From Bacillota bacterium (GTDB lineage: Bacteria; Bacillota; Dethiobacteria; DTU022), in assembly GCA_051748445.1 (NCBI GenBank), contig JBNJHL010000002.1, forward strand, positions 1 to 48,651: a stretch of 48,651 nt of DNA, read 5' to 3'. Below the pieces are notes generated by a model. The model searched no databases, was not told where the DNA came from, and saw only the letters and a program-made list of their open reading frames with translations. Below are positions 10,345 through 46,768 of the stretch, in pieces. Made by a program: the position numbers and the translations under genes. Numbering within the stretch: the stretch's first letter is position 1; each line of letters starts with the position of its first letter.

Positions 10345-10380
10345 AGGTTATAAATTTGTTTTTTAATTTTTCTCCCTGAT

Positions 10381-10410
10381 GAGGCAGCGTAGCCGCTGTC
10401 TCTTTTTTTT
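10381..10410 (+). terminator. intrinsic terminator (riboswitch expression platform)
   Basis: 9-bp stem GAGGCAGCG / CGCUGUCUC (one G-U pair) with a UAGC loop, followed by U8 (10403-10410). The 5' arm and its flank (CCUGAUGAGGCAGC, 10375-88) are complementary to the aptamer 3' strand (GCUGCCGGUCAGG, 10335-47). Confidence 0.8.
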
Positions 10411-10432
10411 CGAAAGTGAGGTCGATGGTGAA

Positions 10433-11839: not shown

Positions 11840-11872
11840 TCTGCCGGATTAACTGTTTAGGGAGGTTCAACG

Positions 11873-27070: not shown

Positions 27071-27574
27071 TTGCATAGTTTAAAAGTATCGGTAAAAACA
27101 ATCATAAGCTTACTTTTTTCTTTGAATGTGCTTTTAACTTTCCTTACCCTTTCTTTGTTCGGGGTTGAGGCCAGTGATACCGTCAGGCTTATCGTTACCG
27201 AGGCTACCGGATTACAACGTGACATGGTAATTTTAAATGTTGATCTCAGGCCAATGGTAATTCACAATGTTTTCTGGCTCTGTCTTGCATCATTCGGATT
27301 CATGCTGATATTTTTGTTTTTTATTGATCACAAATTTAGGGTATTTCTTGGTCCGGGGGTATTAGCCCTTGCTATCACTATATTTATGGTTATTGTTTTT
27401 GTCTTTTCAGCAGAGGACATTGTTCGCTTTGTCGGGCATTCAATGGATCTTTATATTCAAACCGCTCTTAATCGTTTCAGAGATGCTGCTATCGGAATGG
27501 CTATCTTCGGGATAATACTAATCGTTCTTGGCTTAAAGGGTGATCAATACCTGAAAAAGCCCGGGGTCCAGTAA
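27071..27574 (+). CDS. hypothetical membrane protein (about 4 TM helices)
   Basis: 167 aa ORF with a TTG start 5 nt after AAAGGGGGA and strongly hydrophobic segments. I recognise no family. Confidence 0.5.
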   Translation: MHSLKVSVKTIISLLFSLNVLLTFLTLSLFGVEASDTVRLIVTEATGLQRDMVILNVDLRPMVIHNVFWLCLASFGFMLIFLFFIDHKFRVFLGPGVLALAITIFMVIVFVFSAEDIVRFVGHSMDLYIQTALNRFRDAAIGMAIFGIILIVLGLKGDQYLKKPGVQ

Positions 27575-27650
27575 AATCAATACAAATTAATAAATAATAA
27601 AATGAAAGGGGCGACCAAATCATCGCCCCTTTCACATGAGGAGATTTGAA

Positions 27651-28715
27651 ATGATTATTTTGCATACTGCTGATTTGCACCTGGACGAAGAGCATGAAGA
27701 GCGCTGGTCGGCATTTGATGAGCTGGTCAGTTCCGCCAGGGAACATGAAGTAGATGCCCTGATAATATCCGGTGATCTTTTTGATCATGGCTTGGAAGCG
27801 GAAAAGCTAAGAAACAGGCTGCGTTCTACAATCGGCAGCGGAAGTTTCCGGACCGTGATCCTTCCAGGTAATCATGATTACAAGGCTTATCGCAGCGGTC
27901 TTTATTTTGGGGAAAATGTTTCTGTTATCAATAATTGGGAGGATCCGGTGGAAGTTGGAGAGGTAGTAATCTGGGGCCTGCCTTATGAAAGTTTAAGCGC
28001 TGAGAAAATAGTAAGGCGCCTCAAGGATTTAGGAATGAGGATGGATCCTGATCGCATCAATTATTTACTCTTCCATGGTGAGCTTTTAGATGCTTATTTT
28101 TCGCCCGAAGACATGGGTGATGAAGGTGACCAAAGGTTTCTGCCTGTAAAACTATCCTATTTTGCAGATCTGCCAATAAAGCATGTCCTGGCCGGTCATT
28201 TTCATTCAAGATACGCCGCCTGGAACTTGCCTGGCGGAGGGCTGTTCGTTTATCCAGGGTCCCCTTCAGCAGTAACCAGGAGAGAAATAGGGATTCGTAA
28301 AGCCAACCTGGTAGAACACGGTGGTATAATTTCTGAACTAATTCTTAACACTGCTCACTATGAAAGACTGTCTTTAAACCTTGATCCATTCAGCGAAAGA
28401 AACCCTCTTGAACAGCTTGAACAATTTTTGCAGGGATTGCACCTCCGGGCAAAACTAATTCTATCTATCAGCGGGTATTTCAACGGCGCTGCCCTGGGGT
28501 TAAATGAGAGCGAACTGGTTGATGCTATTAAGCTAAAAATGGATAATTACCTGGTTGACGAATTAGTGATTGAATTCAAAGATGTTCAGCATATCCTGGA
28601 AGACGATCTATTTAAAAAGTTTCGCGAAAAATTATCACTAACCGATTATACCCGGGATCAGCAGGAGAAAGCCGAGAAGATGCTGATAGATGCTTTCAGG
28701 GGGGTGAAAAGATGA
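27651..28715 (+). CDS. metallophosphoesterase, SbcD/Mre11-like DNA repair exonuclease (YhaO/SbcF-type)
   Basis: Calcineurin-like motifs appear in order: HTADLHL, SGDLFD, GNHD, FHGEL, GHFH. ATG 27651 lies 7 nt after GAGGAG. The stop overlaps the next gene (ATGA). Confidence 0.8.
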   Translation: MIILHTADLHLDEEHEERWSAFDELVSSAREHEVDALIISGDLFDHGLEAEKLRNRLRSTIGSGSFRTVILPGNHDYKAYRSGLYFGENVSVINNWEDPVEVGEVVIWGLPYESLSAEKIVRRLKDLGMRMDPDRINYLLFHGELLDAYFSPEDMGDEGDQRFLPVKLSYFADLPIKHVLAGHFHSRYAAWNLPGGGLFVYPGSPSAVTRREIGIRKANLVEHGGIISELILNTAHYERLSLNLDPFSERNPLEQLEQFLQGLHLRAKLILSISGYFNGAALGLNESELVDAIKLKMDNYLVDELVIEFKDVQHILEDDLFKKFREKLSLTDYTRDQQEKAEKMLIDAFRGVKR

Positions 28716-33000: not shown

Positions 33001-34428
33001 ATGAAAGTGACTGAAAAACGAAATTTGCTGCGCGATCTTCCCGCTGTTGACCGCCTGCTGCATGAAGAAGTTATTGATGATTTACTGGAATGCCTGCCGC
33101 GTCGTATAGTTTTAGAGGCTGCCCAGGAAACAATTGCATCGTACCGTGATGCTATAACCGGCAGGGCAGACGCTGATAAGGAGCCGGAAGCTTTCGACCT
33201 TTCACCGGAAATACTGGCGAAGGAAGCTGCCGCGCTGGCTGAAAAAATGGGCAAAATGAACCTGAGATCACTGATTAATGCCACCGGTATTATCATTCAT
33301 ACAAACCTCGGCCGTGCTCCTCTGCCGGAAGCGGCGGTTGAAGCATTGAATGATATAGCCTCCCGCTATAACAATCTGGAGTATTCACTGGATAAAGGCA
33401 AACGTGGCTCAAGACAGGAACACATTGAAGATTTGATTTGCCAGTTAAGCGGGGCTGAAGCAGCCGCGGCCGTCAATAATAACGCCGCTGCTGTATTCCT
33501 TGCCCTCAACACCATAGCCGTCGGCAGGGAAGTAATTGTTTCCAGGGGACAGCTGGTCGAAATTGGCGGATCGTTTAGAATTCCTGAGATTATGACAACC
33601 AGCGGCGCTACCCTCAGGGAAGTAGGTACTACCAATAAAACTTACCTGCGCGACTATGAAGAAGCGGTTAATGAAGATACTGCTGCTTTCTTGAAGGTGC
33701 ATACCAGTAACTACCACATGGTTGGCTTTACAGCAGAGGTTGGCACGGCAGAACTTGCGGTGGCGGCCCATAAGCGCGGATTGCTGTTGTTGGAAGACCT
33801 GGGCAGCGGAGTTTTTATTGACCTTGAAAAATTCAGCTTGCCTCCTGAACCGCGGGTTCAGGACAGTATAGCTAACGGGGCTGACCTGGTAACTTTCAGC
33901 GGGGATAAAATGCTTGGCGGCCCCCAGGCCGGCATCATTATTGGCCGCCAAGAGCTAATATCTGCTATCAAGACCAACCAGCTGGCCAGGACCCTGCGAG
34001 TTGATAAGTTCGCTGTGGCAGCCCTCGAAGCGACTTTAAGGCTTTACCTTGATGAAGAACGGGCAGTAAAAGAAATCCCTGTCTGGCAAATGCTTACTGC
34101 CAAACCTGAAGCACTCAGAAAAAGGGCAGGTAAACTGGCCGAAGCACTGGGTAATATTTTTGAGGCGGAACGGGTTAAAGTTGTAAAAAGTATTTCCAAG
34201 GTTGGCGGGGGAGCACTACCCATGGCTGAGTTGCCAACTTACCTGGTTTCCCTGGAACTGTCCGGGATGGAATTGACCCCCGGGGAAGTGGTAGAAAAAC
34301 TGCGCTATACTGACCCTCCTGTAATCCTGCGCATCTACCAGGACAACCTGCTTTTTGATCCCCGCACCATATTTGAATACCAGGAAGAAACCCTGGTTAA
34401 AATAGTTGGTGCAGTATGCCAGGGATAG
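33001..34428 (+). CDS. selA: L-seryl-tRNA(Sec) selenium transferase
   Basis: 475 aa with LRDLPAVDRLL at the N-terminus, NATGIIIHTNLGRAPL, and the PLP-lysine context FSGDKMLGGPQAG. The start may be GTG 33007, because GGAG ends 1 nt before ATG 33001. Confidence 0.93.
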   Translation: MKVTEKRNLLRDLPAVDRLLHEEVIDDLLECLPRRIVLEAAQETIASYRDAITGRADADKEPEAFDLSPEILAKEAAALAEKMGKMNLRSLINATGIIIHTNLGRAPLPEAAVEALNDIASRYNNLEYSLDKGKRGSRQEHIEDLICQLSGAEAAAAVNNNAAAVFLALNTIAVGREVIVSRGQLVEIGGSFRIPEIMTTSGATLREVGTTNKTYLRDYEEAVNEDTAAFLKVHTSNYHMVGFTAEVGTAELAVAAHKRGLLLLEDLGSGVFIDLEKFSLPPEPRVQDSIANGADLVTFSGDKMLGGPQAGIIIGRQELISAIKTNQLARTLRVDKFAVAALEATLRLYLDEERAVKEIPVWQMLTAKPEALRKRAGKLAEALGNIFEAERVKVVKSISKVGGGALPMAELPTYLVSLELSGMELTPGEVVEKLRYTDPPVILRIYQDNLLFDPRTIFEYQEETLVKIVGAVCQG

Positions 34429-34458
34429 GCCACCTATTCGATAAGGAGTGTTGTAAGC

Positions 34459-36366
34459 TTGGAACAGCTTATAATCGGCACAGCCGGTCATGTTGATCAC
34501 GGCAAAACGGTTTTGATTAAAGCCCTAACCGGGATGGACACCGATCGTTTCCAGGAAGAGAAAGAGCGCGGCATTTCCATCGATCTTGGTTTTGCTCCCT
34601 TTAAATTACCCGACGGCAGACTGGCCGGGGTAATTGATGTGCCCGGGCATGAAAAATTTATCCATAATATGCTGGCCGGGGCAGGCGGAATGGACCTGGT
34701 CATGCTGGTGATCGATGCAACTGAAGGAGTAATGCCTCAGACCCGGGAACATCTGGATATTCTGGAACTCCTTGGAACAAAAAACGGTATTGTGGTTATT
34801 ACCAAGATTGACCTGGTTGAAGAAGAATGGCGGGAACTGGTCCAGGATGAAATTAGGGAGGAACTGGCCGGTACTTTTTTGGAAGATGCCACCATTCATG
34901 CTGTCGCCGCTCTGCAAGGAGCGGGGATAGAAGAACTTAAGGAACTAATTCATAAACTTACCCTGGACCTGGAACCGCGGGATTCCAGTGGACCGCTGCG
35001 CCTGCCCGTTGATCGTTCTTTCGTTATTTCCGGCTTTGGCACCGTGATAACGGGAACTTTGATTCAGGGATCGGTCAGGGTTGGTGACATAGTATCTATT
35101 GTCCCCCCCGGAATTGAAGTGCGGGTCCGTAATATCCAGGTACATGATACTGATGTAAAAGAAGCAGGAGCGGGAACCAGGGTGGCCTTAAATCTTTCCG
35201 GCCTGGAAAAAGACCAGGTTCTAAGGGGCAGTGTAATTAGCAATCCAGGCTATTACCGGCAGACGGATCTGATTGATGTATCGGTTGAACTGCTCGAAAA
35301 AGCTCCGCGTAAATTAAAAAATCTTGATCCTGTTCACTTTTTCCTGGGCACTGCCCGGACTGTGGCCAGGATGCATATTTTGGACAAGGAAGAACTTCTG
35401 CCGGGGCAAAGCGCCCTGGTCCAGTGCCGTTTGGAAAAACCCCTGGTAACGGAAAGGGGCGATCCTTTTGTGGTCCGCTCATATTCGCCAATGACTACAA
35501 TTGGCGGGGGGAAGGTGCTCGATCCATTCCCAGAGAGGCATCGCCGTTTTCGTACTGATGTTATCGAGCGTCTGCACGAACTTGAACAGGCTCCTGCTGC
35601 CGGTGGGGACTCTGCCTTTGTACGCCGCAAGTTGGAAGAACTGGTGGCAGCAGATATTTTCCACCTGGTAAAGGAAACACGCATGGGTCAGGCCAAAGTA
35701 GAGGATATATTAAAAGATCTAATTGCAATGAAACAGGTTAAAAAAATAGGTGAAACCTATCTTTTAACTGAAAAACTTAAAGAATTTGAAGAGAAACTGA
35801 TTCAGGAACTTGAGCGTTTCCACCAGAAGCGGCCCCTTGCTTATGGTATTTCCCGGGCTCGTTTAAAGGGCTTTTTGCCGCCTTCTTTTAATCAGCGAGA
35901 ATATGATGCCCTGCTTGATAATCTGGAGGAAAGAGAACTGATTTTTGTAAAAAATAACCTGGTTGCGAAATATGGTTTTGAGCCAGAGCCTTCAGCTTCC
36001 GACAGAGAAAAGATCGATAAACTAAGCGAACAATACCGACAGGGTTGGCTGCAGCCACCATCTATCGGGGAAGCCTTCGAGAAAGCAGCAGTCAAGCAGG
36101 ACCGAAAAGATGAACTGTACAACTACCTGGTTAGCAATGAAACACTGATTAAAATTAGTGAAGATCTTTATTTTCACCGGGATGCTTATAATGCTGCTCT
36201 TGATTTGCTGCGCAAACATTTTACTGACAACCAGCAGCTAACCCTGGCAGAATTTCGTGATCTGTCGGGCAGCTCAAGAAAATTTGCCCAGGCCCTGCTT
36301 GAGCACTTCGACCAGGTCAAAATCACCCGCCGGGTCGAAGACCACCGCGTCCCCAACAAACTCTAA
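34459..36366 (+). CDS. selB: selenocysteine-specific translation elongation factor
   Basis: GTPase motifs IIGTAGHVDHGKT, DVPGHE, TKID, followed by EF-Tu-like domains II/III and a long C-terminal winged-helix (SECIS-binding) extension. TTG start. Confidence 0.93.
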   Translation: MEQLIIGTAGHVDHGKTVLIKALTGMDTDRFQEEKERGISIDLGFAPFKLPDGRLAGVIDVPGHEKFIHNMLAGAGGMDLVMLVIDATEGVMPQTREHLDILELLGTKNGIVVITKIDLVEEEWRELVQDEIREELAGTFLEDATIHAVAALQGAGIEELKELIHKLTLDLEPRDSSGPLRLPVDRSFVISGFGTVITGTLIQGSVRVGDIVSIVPPGIEVRVRNIQVHDTDVKEAGAGTRVALNLSGLEKDQVLRGSVISNPGYYRQTDLIDVSVELLEKAPRKLKNLDPVHFFLGTARTVARMHILDKEELLPGQSALVQCRLEKPLVTERGDPFVVRSYSPMTTIGGGKVLDPFPERHRRFRTDVIERLHELEQAPAAGGDSAFVRRKLEELVAADIFHLVKETRMGQAKVEDILKDLIAMKQVKKIGETYLLTEKLKEFEEKLIQELERFHQKRPLAYGISRARLKGFLPPSFNQREYDALLDNLEERELIFVKNNLVAKYGFEPEPSASDREKIDKLSEQYRQGWLQPPSIGEAFEKAAVKQDRKDELYNYLVSNETLIKISEDLYFHRDAYNAALDLLRKHFTDNQQLTLAEFRDLSGSSRKFAQALLEHFDQVKITRRVEDHRVPNKL

Positions 36367-36396
36367 GTACACGGGGACGGAGGTTTTGTACTTGAA

Positions 36397-37461
36397 ATGG
36401 ATGGTGCTAATATGAGCCGTGAAGAAATACGCCTTACCAGTATGACGGCCAGTGCCGGTTGAGCGGCGAAAGTAGGGCCGGAGGCCCTGGCGCAGGTCCT
36501 GCGCCACCTGCCACCAATAGATGATCCCAATTACCTGAACCGGGAACAGCATTTTGCTGATGCCGGTATATATCGTATTTCGGAAACCCAGGCCCTGGTT
36601 CAGACTGTTGATTTTTTCACCCCAATAGTTGATGGCCCTTACGATTTTGGCCGTATTGCTGCTGCCAATGCTTTAAGTGATGTCTATGCTATGGGCGGCA
36701 AACCTCTTACGGCACTTAATATAATCTGCTTTCCTGTTTCCTGTCAGCCCCTGTCGATTATGGAAGAGATATTGCGGGGTGGTTACGATAAAATCATTGA
36801 AGCCGGTGCAGTCCTGGTTGGTGGACATAGTGTTGAAGATAACGAGCCGAAATATGGTTTATCTATAACCGGCCTGGTTGACTTAGATAAGCTGGTGACC
36901 GGAAGCGGGGCCAGGGCGGGAGACTGCCTGGTTTTAACAAAGCCGATCGGGACAGGCATAATTTCCACAGCTGTGAAAGGTGAGATAATAACAGCAGATG
37001 AAGCTGCTGAGGTAATCGAAGGGATGGCTGTTTTAAATGCAGTGTCAGCGTCTGAAATGGTCAAGTTTGGAGCAACTGCCTGTACAGATATAACCGGTTT
37101 TGGCTTGCTCGGCCACTTGCATGAAATGCTCTTATCAAGTGGAGTTTCCGCAGAACTTAACTTTCAAAAGATCCCCCTTTACCCCTCTGTCAAAGATATG
37201 GCCGCCATGGGCATGATTCCCGCTGGAGCTTACCGCAACCTGGATTATATTAAAGCTCATGTCTCCTGGCAGGGCAGATTTGATCAAAAAGACGATGCCC
37301 TGATTATTTTAGCCGATCCACAGACTTCCGGGGGTCTTTTGGTTGCCCTCCCGGAAGCAAACCTGCAAGAATATCTCACTTCCCTTAAGGAAAAGAATGC
37401 TGACGGCTGCTTGATTGGCCGCATCATTGAGGGTTCACCAGGCGCTATCACCATTGTATAA
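36397..37461 (+). CDS. selD: selenide, water dikinase (selenophosphate synthetase), selenocysteine-containing via in-frame UGA at 36460-36462
   Basis: Track ORF 36691..37461 is only the C-terminal part. The same frame continues upstream as M(DGANM)SREEIRLTSMTASAG-U-AAKVGPEALAQVL...FTPIVDGPYDFGRIAAANALSDVYAMGGKP with a single TGA. That TGA sits exactly where SelD has its catalytic Cys/Sec (SxGxGCK-type N-terminal loop). GGAGG lies at 36379-83. The start is either ATG 36397 or ATG 36412. Confidence 0.88.
36466..36505 (+). promoter_or_regulatory. candidate bacterial SECIS element(s) downstream of the selD UGA
   Basis: Hairpin 1 is GCG-[AAAGUA]-GGGCC-GGA-GGCCC-[UGG]-CGC (36466-36493), with its apical loop about 21 nt from the UGA. 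Hairpin 2 is GGCGCAG-GUC-CUGCGCC (36489-36505), which resembles the GCAGGUCUGC apex of the E. coli fdhF SECIS. The two overlap and are alternatives. Confidence 0.55.
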
Positions 37462-37774
37462 CTATTGCTACCGATTTAACAGTATAGTTAATTTACCTTT
37501 AAATGAAATTGTTTCTATAACAGCATTGACAGATCATTGTCCAATATTTATTTTATGGGTTAATAGTTGATTATGTTAAATATTTATGAATTTAAAAATC
37601 CAGGCAGGAAAATTTAAAGGAAATGTCGAAATCCTCAAATATACGCGAGTAATGTTGCAATTATCTGTTAATTGAATCAAGGTTGTGGAGGTGTTAGCAT
37701 AAAAAAACCATTATTTGAAGAGGAATCCGGTTAAATACTAATTTGCCGGGAGTATTTTAGTATCTAATTACTTA

Positions 37775-38929
37775 ATGATGCGGGGTATGCCAATGAGTAC
37801 GGAAATGCAAACATTTACTGAAAAATATGATTTGCTCGGATGTATCCAATGTGGTCGTTGCACCGGTGGCTGCCCGGTAACAGTCCGGGCTAACTTGAAT
37901 GTCCGCCAGTTTGTTAACGATGCCTATAACGAAGAAAAGCTTGAGGAGTTGGCCAGGCTGGCTGAAATATGGGACTGCACTGCCTGCCATACCTGTGCTG
38001 TCCGCTGCCCCAAGGGCTTGAAACCCCTGGAGGTATTGATTGGCTTGAGGGCAATGATTGTTGAGAGCGGAAAAGTAGAGCCGACAGTGCGGGACGCATT
38101 ACAGAGTGTGCTTCTAGAAGGAAACCCCTGGGATAAACCAAGGGCGACCCGATTGGATTGGATGGAAGGTCTGGATGTAAAGATTGCCGACCCGGATGAA
38201 CCGGTTGAAAACCTTTTTTTTGTCTGTTGTACTATTGCTTATGACCCCCGGGTTCGTGTAGTAGCACAGAATATGGTCAAGCTTCTTAATAAAGCCGGGG
38301 TTGACTACGCTTTTTTACCTGAAGATGAATCGTGTTGCGGCAGCGAAGTCTTTACCCTGGGTGAAGAAGGTCTTTTCGAAATGCAGGTGGAGGATAACAC
38401 AGAATATTTGAATGAATTTAAGGCTAAACGGATAGTTGCCCTTTCTCCTCACTGTTATACCACTTATAAAACCCGATACCCTGATCTTAAAGCACCGGTA
38501 GTTCACTATACTGAGCTTTTGGTTGAATTATTGAATGATGGCAAGCTAACCTGGAAAGAAGAGCTGCCAAAAAAAATTGTTTACCATGATCCCTGCTACC
38601 TGGGGAAGCAGGGTGATATTTATGATCAGCCAAGAGAGCTGCTTAAAAATATTCCCGGCGCTGAACTGGTAGAATTTAATAGATGCCGCGAACGCAGTCT
38701 CTGTTGCGAGGGCGGTGGCGGGAAAATGTGGGTTGAGTCTGAATCAAAGGAAGAAAGGCTGGCAGACAGGCGGATTAAAGATGCCAAGGAATTAGGAGCC
38801 GATATAGTGGCCGTAGCCTGCCCGTTTTGTGTATTAACCCTGGAGGATTCCGTGAAAGGCCTGGGCTACGAAGAAGAAATGCGAGTAGCTGAAATCATGG
38901 AACTTTTAGGTGAACTGATGGAAACATAA
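37775..38929 (+). CDS. HdrD-like (Fe-S)-binding oxidoreductase (fused HdrC-type 2x[4Fe-4S] + HdrB-type 2xCCG domains), soluble
   Basis: CIQCGRCTGGCP and CTACHTCAVRCP ferredoxin motifs, then two cysteine-rich CCG modules (ESCCGSE...PHC...; DPCYLG...SLCCEGGGG...ACPFC). No hydrophobic TM segment. The start could be 37775 or 37793. Confidence 0.82.
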   Translation: MMRGMPMSTEMQTFTEKYDLLGCIQCGRCTGGCPVTVRANLNVRQFVNDAYNEEKLEELARLAEIWDCTACHTCAVRCPKGLKPLEVLIGLRAMIVESGKVEPTVRDALQSVLLEGNPWDKPRATRLDWMEGLDVKIADPDEPVENLFFVCCTIAYDPRVRVVAQNMVKLLNKAGVDYAFLPEDESCCGSEVFTLGEEGLFEMQVEDNTEYLNEFKAKRIVALSPHCYTTYKTRYPDLKAPVVHYTELLVELLNDGKLTWKEELPKKIVYHDPCYLGKQGDIYDQPRELLKNIPGAELVEFNRCRERSLCCEGGGGKMWVESESKEERLADRRIKDAKELGADIVAVACPFCVLTLEDSVKGLGYEEEMRVAEIMELLGELMET

Positions 38930-38961
38930 TCATTTTAACCTGGTAGGAGGTGGCATGAAAG

Positions 38962-39750
38962 TTGAAAACGTTAGTATGTATTAAGTATGTGCCTGACACT
39001 TCCGAAGCGGAAGTAAATGTCAACCCTGACGGTATAAGTGTTGATGATAAACGGTTTTCCTTTGACATCAACGATGCCGACAATTATGCAGTTGAAGAAT
39101 CGGTGCTTATTAAAGAGGCCCATGGTGGTGAGGTAACTGTTTTATCAATGGGTCCAAAAAAATCTGAAGTAATGATTCGTATGGCCCTGGCCAAGGGTTG
39201 TGATAAAGCTGTTCGGATTGAAGATGAACGGGTTGCAGGACACGATCCCCTGATGGTAGCAAAAACCCTGGCAGGTGCTATCAAGGGCCAGGAATTTGAT
39301 CTGGTTTTTACCGGCTGTATGGCTAATGATGACTGGCATATGTCAACCGGAGTAGCCCTGGCAGAAGAGCTCGGTATAAATCATGCTTCGATGGTCAAAC
39401 ATATTGAAGTTATGGATGGAAAAGTTAAAGTCCAGCGCGAGCTTGAAGGCGGCTTACTGGAGGCAGTTGAACTGGAGTTGCCCGCGGTGCTTACGATCCA
39501 AACCGGTATTAATGAGCCTCGCTATGCCCCGATTCGCGGTATTCGCCAGGCCCAGAAAAAAGAATTAAATGTAGTCAGTCTTGATGATCTCGGAATTGAT
39601 CCGGCAACAGTGAGTATGGATGCTTCCCAGGTTGTGCTGGAGAAACTTTATATTCCCGATGTGCAATCCACTGCAGAATTTATTGAGGGCGAACCGGAAG
39701 AAAAGGCTGAAAAACTGGCATCCATTTTGCAAAAGGGAGGCTTAGTATAA
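38962..39750 (+). CDS. etfB: electron transfer flavoprotein beta subunit
   Basis: MKTLVCIKYVPDT..., DADNYAVEESV, and ETF-beta length (262 aa). TTG start 11 nt after AGGAGG. Confidence 0.9.
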   Translation: MKTLVCIKYVPDTSEAEVNVNPDGISVDDKRFSFDINDADNYAVEESVLIKEAHGGEVTVLSMGPKKSEVMIRMALAKGCDKAVRIEDERVAGHDPLMVAKTLAGAIKGQEFDLVFTGCMANDDWHMSTGVALAEELGINHASMVKHIEVMDGKVKVQRELEGGLLEAVELELPAVLTIQTGINEPRYAPIRGIRQAQKKELNVVSLDDLGIDPATVSMDASQVVLEKLYIPDVQSTAEFIEGEPEEKAEKLASILQKGGLV

Positions 39751-40713
39751 ATGGGTAATGTATTAGTTTTGGCGGAACACCGCCAGGGAGAATTAAGAGA
39801 CGTATCTTTTGAAATGTTAGCAGTTGCCCCTGCTCTTGCCAGGGATATGGGTGGCGAGGCTATAGTGCTATTGATCGGCAGCGATATGGATGATCTGGCG
39901 AATCAGATGGCTGCTTACGAGGTTAACGTTAAGGTTGTTGACGATCCTAATTTTGAAAACTTTAATGCAGAAAAGTACCAAAAAGTACTTTCAGTTTTAA
40001 TAGATGAACTTAAGCCTGCTGTATTGATGACCGGACATACTGCCCAGGGTGTCGATTTTATGCCTGCCCTGGCTGTTGAAAAGAACCTGCCCCTGGTGGC
40101 AGATGCGATTGAACTGGCTTATGAAGATGGAACTGTTAAAGCCACCCGTTCGATGTATTCAGGTAAAGTTAACGCGGTTGTGGCATTTAAGCCAGCCGAC
40201 ACTTACCTGGTTACTTTCCGGGAAGGGGCTGTTGAAGCTCCGGAAGCAGCTGCAGAAGGCAGTGTGGAAAAAATCGACAATCCTTTTACCGATGATATTC
40301 CTTATCGTAAATTCGTGGAATACGTTGAAGCAGAAGTCGGTGATGTAGATATTACCCAGTCCGATGTCCTGGTTGCTATAGGCCGCGGATTGAAAGAAGA
40401 TAAGAACCTGCCCGTAATTGAAGAACTGGCAGCAGCCATAAAAGCAGATCTGGCCGGTTCAAGGGCGGCTACAGATGCAGGTTGGATACCTCATGACCGC
40501 CAGGTTGGAACATCGGGCAAAACGGTAAAACCGAAACTCTATATAGCCATGGGTATTTCCGGAGCATTCCAGCACCTGGCTGGAATGAAAGGGGCCAAAA
40601 CAATTGTAGCTATTAATAAAGACCCCGAGGCTCCGATATTTTCCGTGGCTGATTATGCAATCGTCGATGATCTGTTCAAAGTTGTGCCCAAGTTAACTGA
40701 AAAGCTTAAGTAG
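39751..40713 (+). CDS. etfA: electron transfer flavoprotein alpha subunit
   Basis: [18 protein letters not shown] at the N-terminus. The C-terminal FAD-binding region is [36 protein letters not shown]. There is no N-terminal ferredoxin domain. Confidence 0.92.
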
Positions 40714-40770
40714 CATTAATATAAGCTATCTAATTTTAGGGCCAATTTATGCGGGAGGATGAAAAGCCAG

Positions 40771-42771
40771 ATGACGGAAAAACCAAAAGTGGGTGTCTAT
40801 GTCTGTCACTGTGGAATTAACATTTCTTCGACAGTAGATGTGGATACAGTTGCGAAATTTGCGGAAAGACTGCCTAACGTAAAAGTGGCGCGCACCTACT
40901 CCTATATGTGCTCCGATCCCGGCCAGGCCCTGATCAAGAAAGATATAGAGGATCAGGGATTAAATCGGATTGTTGTTGCATCCTGTTCGCCACGCATGCA
41001 TGAGCCTACCTTCAGAAAGGCGATTGCCGATGCCGGGGTCAATCCCTATTATCTTGAGATGGCCAATATCCGGGAGCAGTGTTCCTGGGTTCATGAGGAA
41101 ATTGAAGAAGGTACAGCCAAGGCAAAAAAACTGATTAGCGCATCAGTGGCAAAAGTCAGGCTACTCGAAGCACTTGAACAAAAAGAAGTTGATGCCGAAC
41201 CGGCAGCCCTGGTCATCGGGGCCGGGATAGCCGGTATTCAATCAGCTCTTGATATTGCTGATGCTGGCTTTCAGGTTTACCTGGTCGAGAAAACACCATC
41301 AGTTGGGGGACGGATGGCCCAGCTTGATAAAACCTTTCCCACCCTGGATTGTTCGGCCTGTATCTTAACCCCGAAAATGGTTGATGCTGCCAATCACCCC
41401 AATATTGAACTGATGACCTATTCTGAGGTAGAAGAGGTTAACGGGTTTATCGGTAATTTCGAGGTAAAGGTGCGCAAGAAAGCCCGTTACGTCGATTTCG
41501 ATAAATGCACCGGCTGTGGTGACTGTGCCAAGGAATGCCGGATAAAAGATCGGGTGCCCAACGAATTTGACGAGGGCCTGGGCAAAAGGTCTGCTATATA
41601 CCTGCCTTTCCCCCAGGCAGTTCCGGCCAAGTATACGATTGATCCCGAAAACTGTCTATACCTTAGTAAAGGAAAGTGCGGGAAGAGTCCTAAATGCCAG
41701 GAAGTGTGCGGCACCGGGGCGATTGATTTTGAGCAGGAAGACGAGTTTATCGAATTCAAGGTTGGCGCAATTATAGTAGCGACCGGTTTCGATCCCTTTA
41801 ACCCGTCTCGTAAGCCGGAATATGGTTATGATGATTACCCCAACGTGATAACCGGTATGGAAATGGAACGTCTTGTTTCCGCTTCCGGTCCAACGGAGGG
41901 TAAAGTTAAAGTATTTAATGGTGAAGAAGAGATTGAGCCAAAAGAAGTGGCTTTAATTAAGTGTGTCGGTTCGCGAGATCAAAGTGTGGGCAATGAATAT
42001 TGCTCCAGGGTGTGTTGCATGTATGTAGCCAAGCAGGCCCATCTGATCAGGGATAAACTGCCTGATGCCAATATCCGGATTTACTATATGGATGTGCGCG
42101 CCTTCGGTAAGGGTTTTGAGGAGTTTTATGACCGGGTTCGCCGTGAAAATGTCCGCTATATCAGAGGCAATCCTTCCGAGATATTCAAGAGGGGTAACAA
42201 GTTGGTAGTAAAGGTTGAAGATACTCTGACCTCTACACCGCTTGAAGATGAAGTGGATATGGTCGTGCTGGGAGTAGGACTCGAACCACGGGCAGATATG
42301 CGTAAAGTGATGAATTTGCTGCGCCTCTCGCAGTCACCGGATAAGTTTTTCCTGGAAGCGCATCCCAAACTAAGGCCTGTGGATACTGCAACAGATGGTG
42401 TTTTCCTGGCTGGCTGTGCCCAGGGTCCGAAGGATATACCCGATACGGTAGCCCAGGCCAAGGGAGCAGCAGCTTCAGCAATGATTCCGCTGGCCAGGGG
42501 CAAGGTTCCAATTAATGCCCAGGTGGCTATCGTTAATGAGGCAACCTGCCGGGGCTGCGCTTTCTGTGTCAATATTTGCCCCTATTCAGCGATAGAAATG
42601 GTTACCGTCAACCGTTTTGGCAACGAGGTCGAGGTAGCCCGGGTCAATGAGGCTCTCTGTAAAGGCTGTGGATCATGTGCAGCTGCCTGTTTGTCTGATT
42701 CAATTCAGCCTAAATCGTTCCGCGACAGCCAGATACTACCGCAAATCGCGGCATTGGGAGGCATGAAATGA
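40771..42771 (+). CDS. hdrA: heterodisulfide reductase subunit A-like flavo-Fe-S protein
   Basis: VGVYVCHCGINIS...VVASCSPRMHE (N-terminal HdrA module), FAD-binding ALVIGAGIAGIQSALDIADAG, CTGCGDCAKEC, and the C-terminal motifs CRGCAFCVNICP and CKGCGSCAAAC. ATG 40759 abuts GGGAGG, so ATG 40771 is the likelier start. Confidence 0.9.
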   Translation: MTEKPKVGVYVCHCGINISSTVDVDTVAKFAERLPNVKVARTYSYMCSDPGQALIKKDIEDQGLNRIVVASCSPRMHEPTFRKAIADAGVNPYYLEMANIREQCSWVHEEIEEGTAKAKKLISASVAKVRLLEALEQKEVDAEPAALVIGAGIAGIQSALDIADAGFQVYLVEKTPSVGGRMAQLDKTFPTLDCSACILTPKMVDAANHPNIELMTYSEVEEVNGFIGNFEVKVRKKARYVDFDKCTGCGDCAKECRIKDRVPNEFDEGLGKRSAIYLPFPQAVPAKYTIDPENCLYLSKGKCGKSPKCQEVCGTGAIDFEQEDEFIEFKVGAIIVATGFDPFNPSRKPEYGYDDYPNVITGMEMERLVSASGPTEGKVKVFNGEEEIEPKEVALIKCVGSRDQSVGNEYCSRVCCMYVAKQAHLIRDKLPDANIRIYYMDVRAFGKGFEEFYDRVRRENVRYIRGNPSEIFKRGNKLVVKVEDTLTSTPLEDEVDMVVLGVGLEPRADMRKVMNLLRLSQSPDKFFLEAHPKLRPVDTATDGVFLAGCAQGPKDIPDTVAQAKGAAASAMIPLARGKVPINAQVAIVNEATCRGCAFCVNICPYSAIEMVTVNRFGNEVEVARVNEALCKGCGSCAAACLSDSIQPKSFRDSQILPQIAALGGMK

Positions 42772-43199
42772 GTGCAAATTATGAACCAAACATTGTAGCG
42801 TTTCTTTGTAACTGGTGTTCCTATGCCGGTGCCGACCTGGCCGGGACCAGCCGGGTCAGCTATCCAGCCAATATTCAGATTATCAGGGTAATGTGCTCCG
42901 GCAGAGTTAATCCGCTTTATGTAATGAATGCCCTCCAGCAGGGTGCAGACGGGGTGCTTGTGTCGGGCTGTCATCCCGGGGACTGCCATTATATGGAAGG
43001 GAACTATTATGCCAGGCGGCGTCTTGGTATGCTAAAAGACCTGATGGAATTTGTCGGGGTCGATCCAAAGCGTTTTCATATGAGCTGGGTATCTGCTTCA
43101 GAGGGACACAAGTGGAAAGAAGTAGTGGAAAAAACCGTTGAAGATGCCAAAGAAGCCGGACCTTTTGAAGGATTCAGGCGCCGGCAGATTGACTGGTAG
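42768..43199 (+). CDS. mvhD: MvhD/FlxD-like hydrogenase iron-sulfur (delta) subunit
   Basis: 143 aa with IVAFLCNWCSYAGADLAG...MCSGRV...VSGCHPGDCHY. The start overlaps the hdrA stop (ATGA). Confidence 0.9.
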   Translation: MSANYEPNIVAFLCNWCSYAGADLAGTSRVSYPANIQIIRVMCSGRVNPLYVMNALQQGADGVLVSGCHPGDCHYMEGNYYARRRLGMLKDLMEFVGVDPKRFHMSWVSASEGHKWKEVVEKTVEDAKEAGPFEGFRRRQIDW

Positions 43200-43213
43200 G
43201 AGGGTTTAGGATA

Positions 43214-44194
43214 ATGGATCTGGAACTATTACGCAAAACCGCGGCGGAAGTTGTTGCCCGTGATGATGTTAAGTACCTTCTAGGTTGGAAACAGGGTACT
43301 TACGGGTACCGGGTAGCACCTGCCTTTGTTGAAGACGCTGCCGGTGCTGCAGAGCTGATCTTTTCGCCTCTCTGCACCGCCAATCTTGCTACGTATTTAA
43401 CCCTTGTAGAGCAGCTGCCGGTGCCACGTGGGGAGGAACCGGATAAACGAAAAGTTGCCCTTATGGTAAAAGGTTGTGACAGCAGAGCTGTTACTCAACT
43501 CCTGGTAGAAAAGGGCATTGAACGCGATGAAGTGGTTGTGATCGGCTGCCCTTGTCCGGGAGTAGTTGATTCTGCCCTGCTTGTTGAAAAATACCCGGAG
43601 ACTGAAGAACCGGCTGAAATGAAATGGGACGGAGCAGATTTCTTGCTGATCAGGAATGGAGAAGAAACTATAATTTCCAGGGATGAGCTGCTGGCAGAAA
43701 AATGCCGTCTTTGCCGATATCCTAATCCGGTTATCAGTGATGAAATGCTGGGTGAACTGGTTGAGAATTGGGAACTGGTTGAAGATAAAGGTGTTGAAGA
43801 AGTAGAGGCTAAAGATTTAGATAGCCGCTGGGAGTTTTGGATGGAGCAATTTGATAAGTGTGTGCGCTGTTACAGCTGTCGCAATGTTTGTCCGCTTTGT
43901 TACTGCCAGGACTGTATTCTTGATCGCCTTAACCCGACCTGGGTAAACCGCTCGGTCAACTTTTCCGAGAATACTGCTTTTAATATAGCCCGGGCGTTTC
44001 ACCTGGCCGGTCGCTGCATAGAATGCGGCGAGTGTGAGCGGGTTTGCCCGGCTAATATTCCCCTGGGCAAAATAAATCGGAAATTAGCCCGGGATGTAAG
44101 GGACAAATACGGTTTTGAACCGGGAATCGATCCCGAAGCAGAACCGTTCCAGGCCAGCTATAAGCCTGATGATCCCGAAGACTTCATACTTTAG
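43214..44194 (+). CDS. 4Fe-4S dicluster protein, FlxC-like (FrhB/F420-hydrogenase-beta-like N-terminal part)
   Basis: CVRCYSCRNVCPLCYC and CIECGECERVCPANI. Sits between mvhD-like and AsrA/HydB-like genes, as in flx clusters. Confidence 0.7.
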   Translation: MDLELLRKTAAEVVARDDVKYLLGWKQGTYGYRVAPAFVEDAAGAAELIFSPLCTANLATYLTLVEQLPVPRGEEPDKRKVALMVKGCDSRAVTQLLVEKGIERDEVVVIGCPCPGVVDSALLVEKYPETEEPAEMKWDGADFLLIRNGEETIISRDELLAEKCRLCRYPNPVISDEMLGELVENWELVEDKGVEEVEAKDLDSRWEFWMEQFDKCVRCYSCRNVCPLCYCQDCILDRLNPTWVNRSVNFSENTAFNIARAFHLAGRCIECGECERVCPANIPLGKINRKLARDVRDKYGFEPGIDPEAEPFQASYKPDDPEDFIL

Positions 44195-44205
44195 AGGTGG
44201 GTGAT

Positions 44206-45219
44206 ATGTCAGCGATGCTGTTGAGTAAAGAAAAATGGCCTGAATTTGTCGGAAAGTTGACCGGTAAAAATGTTTGGGCCCCGCAGGCAAATGGCGCTGA
44301 AATGCGTTTTGCCCCTGTGGGCGAAAATGAAGAAATTGTCCTAGACTATAACAACACCAGGGTTCCGCCCAAGGGAGCGCTATTTCCTCAGACGGAAACC
44401 ATGTTTAAATTCGAACTCGGTTCAGAACAGGTTGAAGAACCGCCGCTGGATCAGGATGTTGTTGTATTAGGTTTGCGTCCCTGTGATGCCAGGGCTATGT
44501 CTATTGTAGATAAGCTGTTTAAGTGGGATATTGATGATCCCTACTTTGTAAAGCGCCAGGAGAAAACCACCCTGGTTGGACTGGCCTGTAATGAACCCGG
44601 CCTTAACTGTTTTTGCACCTCAGTTGGTGGTGGCCCCGCTTCAACCGAAGGCCTTGACCTCTTAATGGTTGACCTGGGCGGAAACTACCTGATGGAATCA
44701 TTAACAGATAAGGGTAATGCTCTTCTGGATGAAACAAAGAATCTCCTTGAGAATGCTGATGATAGTGCAATAAAGCAGAAAGAAAAACTGGCCGGTGAAG
44801 CAGAAGATAAAATTAAACGTTCTGTTGATACCGAGGGTGTTCCGGAAGGTCTGCCCGGTTTATGGGATAATCCACTCTGGCAGGATATTTCTGCTTCCTG
44901 CCTGGGCTGTGGCACCTGCACTTATCTCTGTCCAACCTGCCATTGTTTTGATATTCAGGATGAAAACGAAGGGCTTGATTCAAGGCGCTGCCGGATGTGG
45001 GATTCCTGTATGTTCACTGAATATACCCAGCATACCGGGGGGCATAACCCCCGACCCACCAGAAAAGAGCGGACCAGGAACCGCATTAATCACAAGTACA
45101 GCTACTATGTCGATAAGTTTGACGTAATTGCCTGCGTCGGGTGCGGCCGGTGTATCAACCTCTGCCCTGTCAATATTGATATTATCGAAATCTTGCGGCA
45201 GGTAAAGGAGGCTCTTTAA
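44206..45219 (+). CDS. 4Fe-4S dicluster protein, AsrA/HydB/FlxB-like
   Basis: CLGCGTCTYLCPTCHCFD and CVGCGRCINLCPVNI, with a conserved N-terminal region as in anaerobic sulfite reductase subunit A / sulfhydrogenase beta. I prefer ATG 44206 (after AGAGGUGG) over GTG 44197. Confidence 0.75.
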   Translation: MSAMLLSKEKWPEFVGKLTGKNVWAPQANGAEMRFAPVGENEEIVLDYNNTRVPPKGALFPQTETMFKFELGSEQVEEPPLDQDVVVLGLRPCDARAMSIVDKLFKWDIDDPYFVKRQEKTTLVGLACNEPGLNCFCTSVGGGPASTEGLDLLMVDLGGNYLMESLTDKGNALLDETKNLLENADDSAIKQKEKLAGEAEDKIKRSVDTEGVPEGLPGLWDNPLWQDISASCLGCGTCTYLCPTCHCFDIQDENEGLDSRRCRMWDSCMFTEYTQHTGGHNPRPTRKERTRNRINHKYSYYVDKFDVIACVGCGRCINLCPVNIDIIEILRQVKEAL

Positions 45220-45220
45220 A

Positions 45221-46063
45221 TTGGTTAAGAATCCTTATATACCATATACAGCAACCGTCGAAGATACCTGGTATGAAACAGGTGGCGACCGCTGTATAAA
45301 AACTTTTAAGGTTGTTTTCGATGATGAAAATGTACGTGACCAGTGGAGCCATCTTCCGGGTCAGTGTGCCATGATTGGGTTGCTTGGAGTCGGGGAAAGT
45401 ATGATCTCAATTTCCTGTTCACCGACAGAAGGGCAGTTTCTGCGCTTCTCGGTTATGAAAATGGGTAAAGTAACCCAGGCTTTACATGAGCTTGAACCGG
45501 GAGACAAAATAATGGTTCGCGGACCATATGGCAATAATTTTCCTGTTGATGAATGGCAGGGCAAAAAAATCTTGACCATTGGCGGTGGGATTGGCCAGGC
45601 TCCCCTTCGCCCGATCATAGAATATGTCAGGGCTAACCTGGATAAATATGATGGCTTGACGATGATTTATGGCGCCCGCACTTCTAACGACCTCTGTTTT
45701 AAAGGCGAGTTTGAAGAAATGAGTAAATGTGATGATTTGTTCTGTCACCTGACTATTGACATAGAGGAAGAAGACTGGCAGTATAATGTTGGTTTTGTGC
45801 CGCAGATGCTCTTGGATCTTGATCCTTCACCGGAAAATACTGTTGCCATTACCTGCGGTCCTCCGATCATGATCCGCTTTGTTCTTGAAAACCTGAAGAA
45901 GCTGGGTTTTGAAGATGAACAGATTTATACCACCATGGAAAACAGGATGAAATGCGGTATCGGCAAATGCGGTCGTTGTAACATTGAAAACATGTATGTC
46001 TGTAAAGATGGTCCTGTTTTCAACTATTCTATCTTAAAAGAGATACCGGAAGCTTTTGCCTAA
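45221..46063 (+). CDS. FAD/NAD(P)-binding oxidoreductase with C-terminal [2Fe-2S], AsrB/HydG/FlxA-like
   Basis: Ferredoxin-reductase-type fold (RFSV...GKVT; GPYGN; ILTIGGGIGQAPLRP) and C-terminal CGIGKCGRCN. TTG start 8 nt after AAGGAGG. Confidence 0.8.
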   Translation: MVKNPYIPYTATVEDTWYETGGDRCIKTFKVVFDDENVRDQWSHLPGQCAMIGLLGVGESMISISCSPTEGQFLRFSVMKMGKVTQALHELEPGDKIMVRGPYGNNFPVDEWQGKKILTIGGGIGQAPLRPIIEYVRANLDKYDGLTMIYGARTSNDLCFKGEFEEMSKCDDLFCHLTIDIEEEDWQYNVGFVPQMLLDLDPSPENTVAITCGPPIMIRFVLENLKKLGFEDEQIYTTMENRMKCGIGKCGRCNIENMYVCKDGPVFNYSILKEIPEAFA

Positions 46064-46140
46064 GATCAAGTTATTTCACGAAATATTTTTAATTAAAGAT
46101 AAGGGGGCAGGGGGACATTTTCTTGTCCCACCCAAAAACA

Positions 46141-46170
46141 AGGGGGGCGCAGCCGAAGGGCAGCGCCCCC
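46141..46170 (+). other. very stable GC hairpin (GGGGGGCGC-A-GCC-GAA-GGC-A-GCGCCCCCC)
   Basis: Read directly. Followed only by UUU. Lies between a weaker hairpin (GGGACA/UGUCCC, 46111-46128) and the terminator at 46174. Confidence 0.6.
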
Positions 46171-46173
46171 CTT

Positions 46174-46219
46174 TAAATAAGTTGAAAAGATGTCAGACAC
46201 AAATTCAACTTATTTTTTT
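46174..46219 (+). terminator. intrinsic terminator of the hdr/etf/flx operon
   Basis: 12-bp stem AAAUAAGUUGAA (46174-85) / UUCAACUUAUUU (46203-14) followed by UUUUU. Confidence 0.7.
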
Positions 46220-46291: not shown

Positions 46292-46768
46292 ATGGAACAA
46301 TATGGAGAAATTATTGAGAATAGAGAAGATATAGCACTGGTTAACCTGCAACGGCACTTAATTTGCGGTGAATGCGGCAAGTGTGGAATTATGAGTGGAG
46401 CTACAAAGCGCAATATAACCATAGAGGCTCATAATCCAATTAAGGCAAAGGAAGGTCAGAAGGTCCGTATTGAATCTGACGATCGCCAGGTAATATTTCT
46501 TGCCTTCATGCTTTATATTGTTCCGCTTGCAGGTCTGATGGGTGGCATCCTGCTCTGGTTTCAGCTGGCCGGACGTTTCAGTATTGCAGGGAGTCAGGAA
46601 CTGCAAGCATTTGCTGTCGGGATGGCCATGATGGTTGTTATTTTCCTTATGATCAGGAATTGGGATCGTCGAGTAAAAAATGATCCCCGGTACAAGCCGG
46701 TGATTACCGGCTTGTTACTTGATAAAAATGACTGTAATGATCAACTTGAACCTGAAATAAAGAATTGA
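46292..46768 (+). CDS. RseC/MucC-family (SoxR-reducing system RseC-like) membrane protein
   Basis: N-terminal G.I......A.V......CGECGKCG motif followed by two TM helices (VIFLAFMLYIVPLAGLMGGILLW; AFAVGMAMMVVIFLMI). RBS GGGAGGAG. Confidence 0.7.
   Translation: MEQYGEIIENREDIALVNLQRHLICGECGKCGIMSGATKRNITIEAHNPIKAKEGQKVRIESDDRQVIFLAFMLYIVPLAGLMGGILLWFQLAGRFSIAGSQELQAFAVGMAMMVVIFLMIRNWDRRVKNDPRYKPVITGLLLDKNDCNDQLEPEIKN

Follow-up and report, generated by a model that had tools for sequence, protein, structure and literature searches.

What does an operon encode that joins an HdrA flavoprotein, a soluble HdrD-like protein, and an electron transfer flavoprotein (ETF) in one row of eight genes? We addressed this question for positions 37775–46063 on the (+) strand of contig JBNJHL010000002.1, a 48,651-bp contig of a Bacillota metagenome-assembled genome (MAG), which is referred to over its whole length as the window. 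The answer toward which we lean, if only by a little, is that the eight genes (g1–g8) encode one soluble HdrA-type flavin-based electron-bifurcating oxidoreductase, which would pass electrons from NAD(P)H to ferredoxin and to a dedicated ETF. This answer draws on gene content, the conservation of domains and ligands, the conservation of the block, and the recurrent linkage of g1 relatives with HdrA and ETF genes, all of which were seen here. A wider proposal, which we hold more tentatively and with somewhat less than even confidence, is that a broader, unnamed family of soluble bifurcases made of HdrA, a membrane-less EMO-like HdrD, and ETF exists, of which this operon would be the form found throughout the class Dethiobacteria. 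At least four other lineages would combine the same core with input modules of a different kind, and such enzymes would provide a direct link between the pools of NAD(P)H, ferredoxin, and ETF.

The block consists of eight co-directional open reading frames (ORFs) on the (+) strand, with exactly the coordinates given in an earlier interpretation made from the letters of this DNA (hereafter, the sequence-only reading). Domain content was obtained from Pfam and NCBIfam profile searches, which agree with all eight module assignments of that reading. The first gene, g1 (37775–38929), encodes a soluble HdrD-like, EtfD(EMO)-like, and BamD-like iron-sulfur protein with two CX2CX2CX3C motifs and two CCG stretches, followed by ETF beta (g2, 38962–39750; Pfam ETF, E = 5e-39), ETF alpha (g3, 39751–40713; Pfam ETF_alpha, E = 4e-34, and ETF, E = 1e-33), a full-length HdrA (g4, 40759–42771; NCBIfam HdrA2 NF040770, 892 bits), and an MvhD/FlpD protein of 143 aa (g5, 42768–43199; Pfam FlpD, E = 4.7e-54). 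The last three genes encode a FlxC-like iron-sulfur protein with two [4Fe-4S] clusters and two CX2CX2CX3C motifs (g6, 43214–44194), a FlxB-like, AsrA/HydB/ShyB-like iron-sulfur protein (g7, 44197–45219; Pfam Fer4_22, E = 1e-33; NCBIfam ShyB, E = 1e-63), and a FlxA-like, AsrB/HydG-like protein (g8, 45221–46063) with the Pfam domains NAD_binding_1 and DHODB_Fe-S_bind ([2Fe-2S]). None of the eight proteins has a transmembrane-like segment, and no membrane protein is encoded within the operon.

From g1 to g8, the intergenic gaps are 32, 0, 45, −4, 14, 2, and 1 nt, the largest (45 nt) lying between g3 and g4 and the start of g5 overlapping the stop codon of g4 by 4 nt. Two hairpins follow g8 on the (+) strand (46104–46173), and the second of them (46140–46173), a long G+C-rich stem ending in UUU, is the probable intrinsic terminator; the RNA of 46064–46200 was predicted to fold at −52.5 kcal/mol (z = −6.48), with 0 of 200 shuffles folding as well. 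A simple terminator scanner missed this hairpin because its T tract is short, while terminator-like matches inside the operon stayed at chance level (13 found versus 10.6 ± 3.0 expected). The spacing and the hairpin confirm the earlier picture of eight tightly packed genes with a terminator only after the last one. We read the block as one unit because its genes overlap or are separated by at most 45 nt, because a strong hairpin occurs only after g8, because a 313-nt spacer precedes g1, and because the block is colinear in 43 of 43 related loci (see below).

To place the block in its lineage, one genome per species was scanned with peptide patterns from g1, which returned 78 loci; since the patterns came from g1, the scan reached close relatives only. 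Nearly all of these loci are labeled Syntrophomonadaceae, Bacillota, Dethiobacter, or Dethiobacteria MAGs, and they originate from soda-lake sediments, serpentinite sites, and digesters, a setting that differs from the sulfate-reducing Clostridia suggested by the sequence-only reading. All eight genes are colinear and on one strand in every locus whose sequence continues for 8.35 kb or more past g1 (43/43), and their order is kept down to 51–75% amino-acid identity; the objection that the cluster might not be conserved as a unit therefore fails. Conservation within the block peaks at HdrA (g4; 74–92% identity), and etfB and etfA come next after g1 in every locus, a statement of gene linkage only. 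An apparent exception, a g1 homolog seemingly without etf (L088, FZPS01000036.1), was rejected because the start of etfB is present before a gap: the supposed 3.3-Mb contig consists of short contigs chained via 100-N runs (at 9704–9803 and 11830–11929), and neighborhoods read across these joints are artifacts. In the literature on Dethiobacter, "Ca. Contubernalis", and "Ca. Syntrophonatronum", no description of the operon was found, the only report being that of WL-cluster HdrA/MvhD.

The gene that sets this operon apart, g1, encodes a single fused protein, whose Pfam matches are CCG in two stretches (E = 6e-32) and a Fer4 dicluster. Its cubane [4Fe-4S] motifs comprise Cys23/26/29/33 and Cys68/71/74/78, and its non-cubane domain (two CCG stretches) contains Cys151/152/187/188/227 and Cys274/310/311/349/352, together with His226. 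The best solved relative is EtfD of Mycobacterium smegmatis (9ojn_A, E = 1.2e-49), with HdrC (6e-13) and HdrB (2e-07) at a distance, and a Foldseek search with the AlphaFold2 (AF2) model of g1 likewise placed EtfD on top (3e-16), followed by LutA and HdrB. In the alignment with EtfD, both cubane motifs of g1 are conserved; Cys152, Cys187, Cys188, and Cys227 are in place, and Cys274, Cys310, Cys311, and Cys349 align with EtfD Cys residues. Cys188 stands where M. smegmatis EtfD has Thr539, i.e., the second Cys of the first CCG is kept, Ser224 replaces EtfD Cys581, and Cys151 is extra in g1. We also ran an exhaustive profile-free search with g1 and took the closest 150 cluster representatives (151 with g1), which comprise 106 proteins of EMO/EtfD length, 16 TfrB-like proteins of ~520 aa, and 29 short soluble proteins (g1 included). 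Among these representatives, His226, which aligns with EtfD His583, is invariant in 150 of 151 and Cys352 is conserved in 148 of 151.

Thus g1 shares with EMO/EtfD the cubane clusters and a non-cubane domain with the conserved His, but not the N-terminal membrane domain (heme b, quinone), its first cluster motif beginning at residue 23. Nor does it have the makeup of separate HdrB and HdrC proteins with an open catalytic non-cubane site, and the earlier view that HdrBC is replaced here by a fused HdrD-like protein lacking transmembrane segments plus an ETF holds. According to the structural papers, EtfD His583 is equivalent to His534 of SaEMO and His230 of BamD, and, in the proximal non-cubane cluster, this His completes or fills the face at which HdrB binds coenzyme M (CoM); given its place at the CoM side, these papers regard the cluster as a non-catalytic electron-transfer center. 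The electron cryomicroscopy (cryo-EM) structure of EMO:ETF has ETF docked on the non-cubane domain, with its flavin adenine dinucleotide (FAD) 12–13 Å from the clusters. By analogy, we propose that g1 is an ETF-docking type of HdrD, which would act as an electron wire joining the flavin of HdrA to that of ETF.

These features of g1 bear directly on a different assignment, that of a Flx-Hdr-type NADH:disulfide/ferredoxin oxidoreductase, in which g1 would genuinely reduce (hetero)disulfides, with DsrC-like or other thiols as its substrates, and the ETF would be only an extra or alternative donor. We regard this as improbable, since g1 is far nearer to EtfD (1e-49) than to either HdrB or HdrC and has the conserved His by which the substrate side is blocked or ligated in EtfD, EMO, and BamD. 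In favor of this assignment, g1 retains both CC(G/E) pairs and has the Cys residues needed to complete two non-cubane clusters, and the FlxABCD-HdrA part of the Desulfovibrio system is matched by the Flx-like genes, MvhD, and HdrA; however, etf genes recur beside soluble g1 relatives, as described below, and there is no DsrC-like gene among the annotated neighbors (the whole genome was not searched). The thiol/disulfide carrier that the sequence-only reading had considered as an acceptor is disfavored by the EtfD/EMO-like character of g1 and its invariant His.

ETFs are in general divided into group I and group II, and the sequences of g2 and g3 assign the ETF of the operon to the one-FAD, non-bifurcating (AMP-type) class. 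The closest solved relative of g2 is the ETF beta of Methylophilus methylotrophus W3A1 (1o94_C, E = 2e-52), which we take to be of the AMP type, binding AMP instead of a second FAD. Where bifurcating CarD and Clostridioides difficile EtfB read DGDTAQVG, g2 reads NDDWHMSTG, resembling both W3A1 (SDQAYASTG) and Paracoccus (DNDMNATG) at the same stretch; we take this stretch as a marker of bifurcating EtfB. The second-FAD EtfB sequence of bifurcating (two-FAD, group 2) ETFs is thus missing from g2, and a bifurcating ETF was rejected on this basis. The alpha chain, g3, matches all solved ETF alpha chains (E = 9e-62 to 1e-38), is expected by family to bind the electron-transfer FAD, and has no N-terminal ferredoxin extension. 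As the ETF appears to be non-bifurcating, it would be a carrier and not a second bifurcation site.

Bifurcation would instead take place in HdrA. The g4 protein aligns end to end with HdrA of Methanothermococcus thermolithotrophicus (5odc_A, E = 7e-248; residues 7–664 against 2–647) and has the domains of a full-length HdrA, i.e., an N-terminal cluster, a thioredoxin-reductase-like FAD domain, an inserted ferredoxin domain, and a C-terminal ferredoxin domain, with CX2CX2CX3C motifs at residues 250, 597, and 634. It keeps, as K425, the Lys of the CCMYxxK motif, which presumably faces N5 of the bifurcating flavin. As a complete methanogen-type HdrA, g4 should therefore have both the bifurcation site and the ferredoxin exit.

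Upstream of HdrA in the predicted electron path, g5 is an MvhD-type [2Fe-2S] adaptor, as found in HdrA-type complexes, with Cys and not selenocysteine. The g6 protein has CX2CX2CX3C motifs at residues 216 and 268, and its C-terminal ferredoxin domain (residues 206–312) matches the FdhB domain of MvhD-containing Fdh-Hdr complexes (9t1s_M, 2e-28; 8rvu_E; 7bkb_E); it is also a distant paralog of g7 (22% identity over ~270 residues, E = 3e-6). The g7 and g8 proteins match the NAD(P)H-linked beta (9nez_B, E = 4.8e-51) and gamma (9nez_C, E = 5.3e-62) subunits of Pyrococcus furiosus sulfhydrogenase I, and g8, with FAD and [2Fe-2S], is proposed to be the NAD(P)(H) site of the system. As far as the profiles tell, g5–g8 together make up an NAD(P)H input module of the Flx type: the Flx subunit set (FlxA-like, two iron-sulfur proteins, and FlxD/MvhD) is complete, an assignment that rests on domain content and on the Desulfotomaculum reducens HdrA/MvhD/FeS/FeS/FAD-NAD set, which its authors equated with FlxABCD (PMC4759654). 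The earlier description of the last four genes as Flx-like is upheld by the sulfhydrogenase-like g7 and g8, the FdhB-like domain of g6, and the presence of the same set in D. reducens.

Outside the Dethiobacteria, we surveyed contigs encoding soluble g1 relatives (35–48% identity) and obtained 10 informative loci. An HdrA-like gene lies beside the g1 relative in 8 of these, etf genes in 6, and both in 4: L079 (679–7985), with HdrD-like, EtfB, EtfA, an HdrA/GltD-like fusion, and a second HdrA-like gene; L081, with EtfA and EtfB and, farther along, HdrA-like and HdrD-like; L089 (1–4447), with an HdrA-MvhD fusion, HdrD-like, EtfA, and EtfB; and L091 (7150–12922), with a double HdrA, HdrD-like, EtfB, and EtfA and a beta-oxidation gene ~650 nt upstream. 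Three short contigs (L080, L071, and L085) have HdrA-like beside HdrD-like, and L086 has HdrD-like, HdrA/GltD-like, MvhD, an FeS protein, and a large HdrA-like protein. The remaining two, L083 and L084, encode ETF with HdrD-like (L084 also an acyl-CoA dehydrogenase) and no HdrA within reach. Overall, the input modules vary by locus and the HdrA/soluble-HdrD/ETF junction recurs. As a separate observation, the double HdrA of L091 recalls BamE, and this locus is situated near beta-oxidation and glycyl-radical enzyme genes.

The same loci allow a second alternative to be weighed, namely, that two independent enzymes share one transcript, an ETF-linked iron-sulfur oxidoreductase (g1–g3) and an NAD(P)H:ferredoxin or other-acceptor HdrA-MvhD-Flx enzyme (g4–g8). 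We consider this very improbable: the halves are never separated in the 43 colinear Dethiobacteria loci, and g1 relatives stand beside HdrA-like genes in 8 of the 10 loci elsewhere, although L083 and L084 combine g1 and etf without HdrA, the Hdr/Flx-like locus of D. reducens is without etf, and the largest gap of the operon falls precisely at g3/g4. Moreover, HdrA without a high-potential branch cannot bifurcate, a soluble g1 without a partner has no electron outlet, and BamE-BamD-ETF shows that such a junction exists in nature.

For the one complex that we favor, the sequence of electron-transfer steps is deduced from homologous complexes of known structure. NAD(P)H would be oxidized at g8 (FAD, [2Fe-2S]), and the electrons would travel via two iron-sulfur proteins, g7 and g6, and the MvhD adaptor (g5) to the bifurcating FAD of HdrA (g4). 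From there, the low-potential electron would pass through the HdrA ferredoxin domains to ferredoxin (Fd), and the high-potential electron would pass through g1 (two cubane, then two non-cubane clusters) to the FAD of the one-FAD ETF (g2/g3), whose electrons could in turn go to a membrane ETF:quinone oxidoreductase or to an acyl-CoA dehydrogenase working as an enoyl-CoA reductase. Overall, this would amount to 2 NAD(P)H + Fd(ox) + 2 ETF(ox) = 2 NAD(P)+ + Fd(red, 2−) + 2 ETF(red), and the same machine could reverse as confurcation. A precedent for the high-potential branch exists in class II benzoyl-CoA reductase, in which the electron passes from the HdrA-type BamE through the HdrD-like BamD to ETF, and in which ETF was seen on BamD in cells by electron cryotomography (cryo-ET) and reduced in vitro (bioRxiv 10.64898/2026.04.10.717634). 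Both BamE-BamD-ETF and the gene neighborhoods seen in other lineages lend support to the broad concept, put forward in the sequence-only reading, of a soluble bifurcating or confurcating system linking ETF, NAD(P), and ferredoxin.

The direction of the reaction is a separate matter. With the potentials quoted in the cited papers (NADH, −320 mV; Fd, ~−450 mV; ETF, ~+16 mV), our own arithmetic gives ~−40 kJ per 2 NADH for the forward reaction; standard potentials therefore favor the direction from NADH to Fd and ETF and not that from ETF to NAD(P)+, which had been suggested before. Confurcation by the same machine, in which ETF reduced by an acyl-CoA or other ETF-linked dehydrogenase would act together with reduced ferredoxin to form NAD(P)H, would give syntrophic oxidizers a soluble high-potential route, and we judge it unlikely, though deserving of serious attention. 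HdrA-type and Flx-type systems are regarded as reversible, and the related loci stem from places where syntrophy occurs (anaerobic digesters and soda-lake sediments that harbor syntrophic acetate oxidizers), but at the quoted standard potentials confurcation would cost ~+40 kJ per 2 NADH and would need strongly displaced pools. Likewise, g1/etf genes have beta-oxidation neighbors in two other lineages (L084, acyl-CoA dehydrogenase; L091, 3-hydroxyacyl-CoA dehydrogenase/enoyl-CoA hydratase), but no dehydrogenase is encoded in the operon studied here. The acyl-CoA dehydrogenase at 17184, to which the sequence-only reading had pointed as a source of ETF-delivered electrons, is correctly assigned to its family; its link to the operon is weak, as it is 20 kb off among housekeeping genes. 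Finally, the block is class-wide and includes lineages labeled Dethiobacter; Dethiobacter alkaliphilus grows lithoautotrophically and has been reported to respire sulfur and thiosulfate, which also counts against confurcation.

Several points weigh against a bifurcating complex that reduces ETF. Support for a single complex is computational throughout, and the survey of other lineages comprises only 10 informative loci on short metagenomic contigs without a taxonomic label. The AF2 model of g1 is moderate (mean predicted local distance difference test score [pLDDT], 67.7), with its ferredoxin domain below 50 and its non-cubane domain well modeled. In addition, neither CCG pair (Cys187/188, Cys310/311) is lost from g1, whose non-cubane domain has at least 10 Cys; HdrB is alike in this, and on sequence grounds g1 might have a catalytic thiol/disulfide site. 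Furthermore, no ETF-dependent dehydrogenase and no ETF:quinone oxidoreductase or membrane EMO is encoded in or beside the operon, and respiration of sulfur or thiosulfate is, by our own reasoning, too low in potential to reoxidize an ETF at ~0 mV.

Directly upstream of the operon, as described before, lie selA, selB, and selD (33001–37461), and a spacer of 313 nt separates selD from g1. The selD gene (36412–37461, + strand) is itself a selenoprotein gene, with an in-frame UGA at 36460–36462 (motif SAG-U-AAKV), and the ORF list shows just its C-terminal 256 aa; no tRNA-Sec gene was found within the window. In agreement with the sequence-only reading, g1–g8 contain no in-frame UGA (TGA at any Cys position), and neither do the orthologs from the 78 loci. 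A selenoprotein tie between the operon and selABD was rejected on these grounds, the UGA occurring in selD only. The genes selA-selB(-selD) stand immediately upstream of the operon in all 39 related loci with room for them, down to ~50% identity, and their adjacency may be mere class-wide synteny.

The selD-g1 spacer (37462–37774, + strand) is non-coding and probably holds the operon's own promoter and leader. Its median length is 321.5 nt over 44 related loci. Comparison of 61 orthologous upstream regions revealed three conserved blocks on the (+) strand, an AT-rich block at ~37560–37600, GGCAGG at 37603–37609, and TGTCGAAA at 37624–37631, in which columns are ≥70% conserved and the cores of GGCAGG and TGTCGAAA are mostly ≥90% conserved. 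A further motif conserved among orthologous regions, GCGGGGT (37780–37786, + strand), is a probable ribosome-binding site; the true g1 start is likely 37793 and not 37775, because the NCBI call is 378 aa and this motif is situated just upstream of it. A promoter-like TTGACA-17-TATTTT at 37526–37554, called by a scanner, falls outside the conserved blocks and was rejected for lack of conservation among orthologous regions. Two kinds of regulatory element were also tried and rejected in the leader: a riboswitch or other known RNA, as no Rfam family matched the 313 nt at the gathering threshold, and an operator for the NADH-sensing Rex, as the best matches to two Rex consensus sequences had 2–6 mismatches in AT-rich DNA (2 mismatches in one locus and none better).

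Beyond the terminator hairpin, 3′ of the operon, lies a gene for a small membrane protein of the RseC/MucC family (46292–46768, + strand; Pfam E = 2.5e-26) with an N-terminal CGECGKCG motif, and asd comes next; the RseC/MucC-family gene is kept downstream of the operon in most Dethiobacteria loci (31–68% identity). Elsewhere in the window, a c-di-GMP-I-GGC riboswitch (RF03167; 10263–10344, + strand; 62.3 bits, E = 1.9e-12) was found directly upstream of trkA (10379–11839), which is followed by trkH (11873–13348), an arrangement that suggests control of potassium uptake by cyclic di-GMP (c-di-GMP). Three consecutive ORFs of 167, 359, and 772 aa (27071–31030, + strand) had no NCBIfam match at an E-value of 1e-10.

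Identified high-potential acceptors have long been lacking for HdrA-type bifurcation outside methanogens, as in Flx-Hdr and many "Hdr-like" loci of syntrophs, acetogens, and sulfate reducers, and an ETF in this role was shown only in a 2026 preprint and only inside benzoyl-CoA reductase. If the proposals made here are true, enzymes of this family would give NADH a third way of driving ferredoxin reduction, in addition to bifurcating ETFs and Flx-Hdr, and the operon would account for the balance between NAD(P)H, ferredoxin, and the ETF level in Dethiobacteria of soda lakes, serpentinizing systems, and digesters. For the study of high-potential transfer from the HdrA flavin to ETF, such enzymes would offer a model of much lower complexity than the 1-MDa benzoyl-CoA reductase. 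A compact soluble eight-gene system with its own ETF would make the route from HdrA through non-cubane clusters to ETF testable with recombinant proteins. Many soluble proteins annotated as "HdrD" or "(Fe-S)-binding protein" may likewise be ETF-docking modules and not disulfide reductases.

How does the operon compare with known systems? Enzymes of this kind are known, while this combination of parts is uncharacterized. The operon is not a member of Flx-Hdr, benzoyl-CoA reductase, or EMO/EtfD, because defining features of each fail, in line with the earlier statement that the arrangement cannot be assigned to a characterized enzyme. By gene content, it can be likened to hdr locus I of D. reducens (Dred_0137-0148; PMC4759654) and to the soluble HdrD + HdrA/HdrL + MvhD loci of Desulfobacterium autotrophicum (PMC2702500), in which HdrA, MvhD, two iron-sulfur proteins, an FAD/NAD(P) oxidoreductase, and soluble HdrD are clustered and no etf genes were reported. 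Soluble HdrD beside HdrA/HdrL/MvhD was noted in these sulfate-reducer genomes without a functional assignment (PMC4759654, PMC2702500).

The methanogen HdrABC-MvhAGD and Fdh-Hdr complexes (PDB 5ODC, 7BKB, and 8RVU) share with the operon HdrA from end to end, MvhD, and the FdhB-like ferredoxin domain of g6, but the operon encodes no hydrogenase, formate dehydrogenase, or catalytic HdrB, and its predicted donor and acceptor are NAD(P)H and ETF. With Bcd-EtfAB and EtfABCX, it would share the reduction of ferredoxin by NADH, for which a high-potential acceptor (at the level of ETF, acyl-CoA, or quinone) supplies the driving force. In those enzymes, however, ETF bifurcates via the second FAD of EtfB, whereas here the corresponding motif is missing and the bifurcating flavin would be that of HdrA.

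FlxABCD-HdrABC of Desulfovibrio vulgaris (Ramos et al., 2015, as cited in other papers) resembles the operon in combining an NAD(P)H-linked FAD/[2Fe-2S] subunit, two iron-sulfur subunits, MvhD, and HdrA in one operon and in its proposed NADH-to-ferredoxin bifurcation at HdrA. Compared with that system, the gene order is reversed here, a fused EtfD/EMO-like protein with the non-catalytic His replaces HdrB and HdrC, and ETF is encoded inside the operon, the predicted high-potential acceptor being ETF and not DsrC or a disulfide. EMO and mycobacterial EtfD (PMC13083937; bioRxiv 10.64898/2026.08.18.745454) are the closest family to g1 by both sequence and fold, have adjacent etf genes, and dock ETF on the corresponding domain, but g1 is without their membrane or heme b domain and hence would pass no electrons to quinone.

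In its electron path, the operon is comparable to BamDEF with the ETF BamOP of Geobacter metallireducens (bioRxiv 10.64898/2026.04.10.717634), which transfers electrons from an HdrA-type flavin through an HdrD-like subunit to a non-bifurcating ETF. There, too, an MvhD-type adaptor feeds the flavin, and BamD combines a pair of cubane clusters with a pair of non-cubane ones and has a His where the substrate site used to be. The defining parts of class II benzoyl-CoA reductase (BamBC, the double-HdrA BamE, the selenocysteine-containing BamF, and the NuoEF-like BamGHI) are all absent from the operon, which has no AOR- or NuoEF-like gene and has in common with that enzyme only the BamD-like/HdrA/ETF junction. 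In their place are a single canonical HdrA and not a permuted double HdrA, a short Cys-containing MvhD and not the long selenocysteine form, a Flx/sulfhydrogenase-like NAD(P)H input module and not BamGHI, and etf genes inside the operon; its low-potential exit would presumably be free ferredoxin, where the benzoyl-CoA reductase has the tungsten module BamBC.

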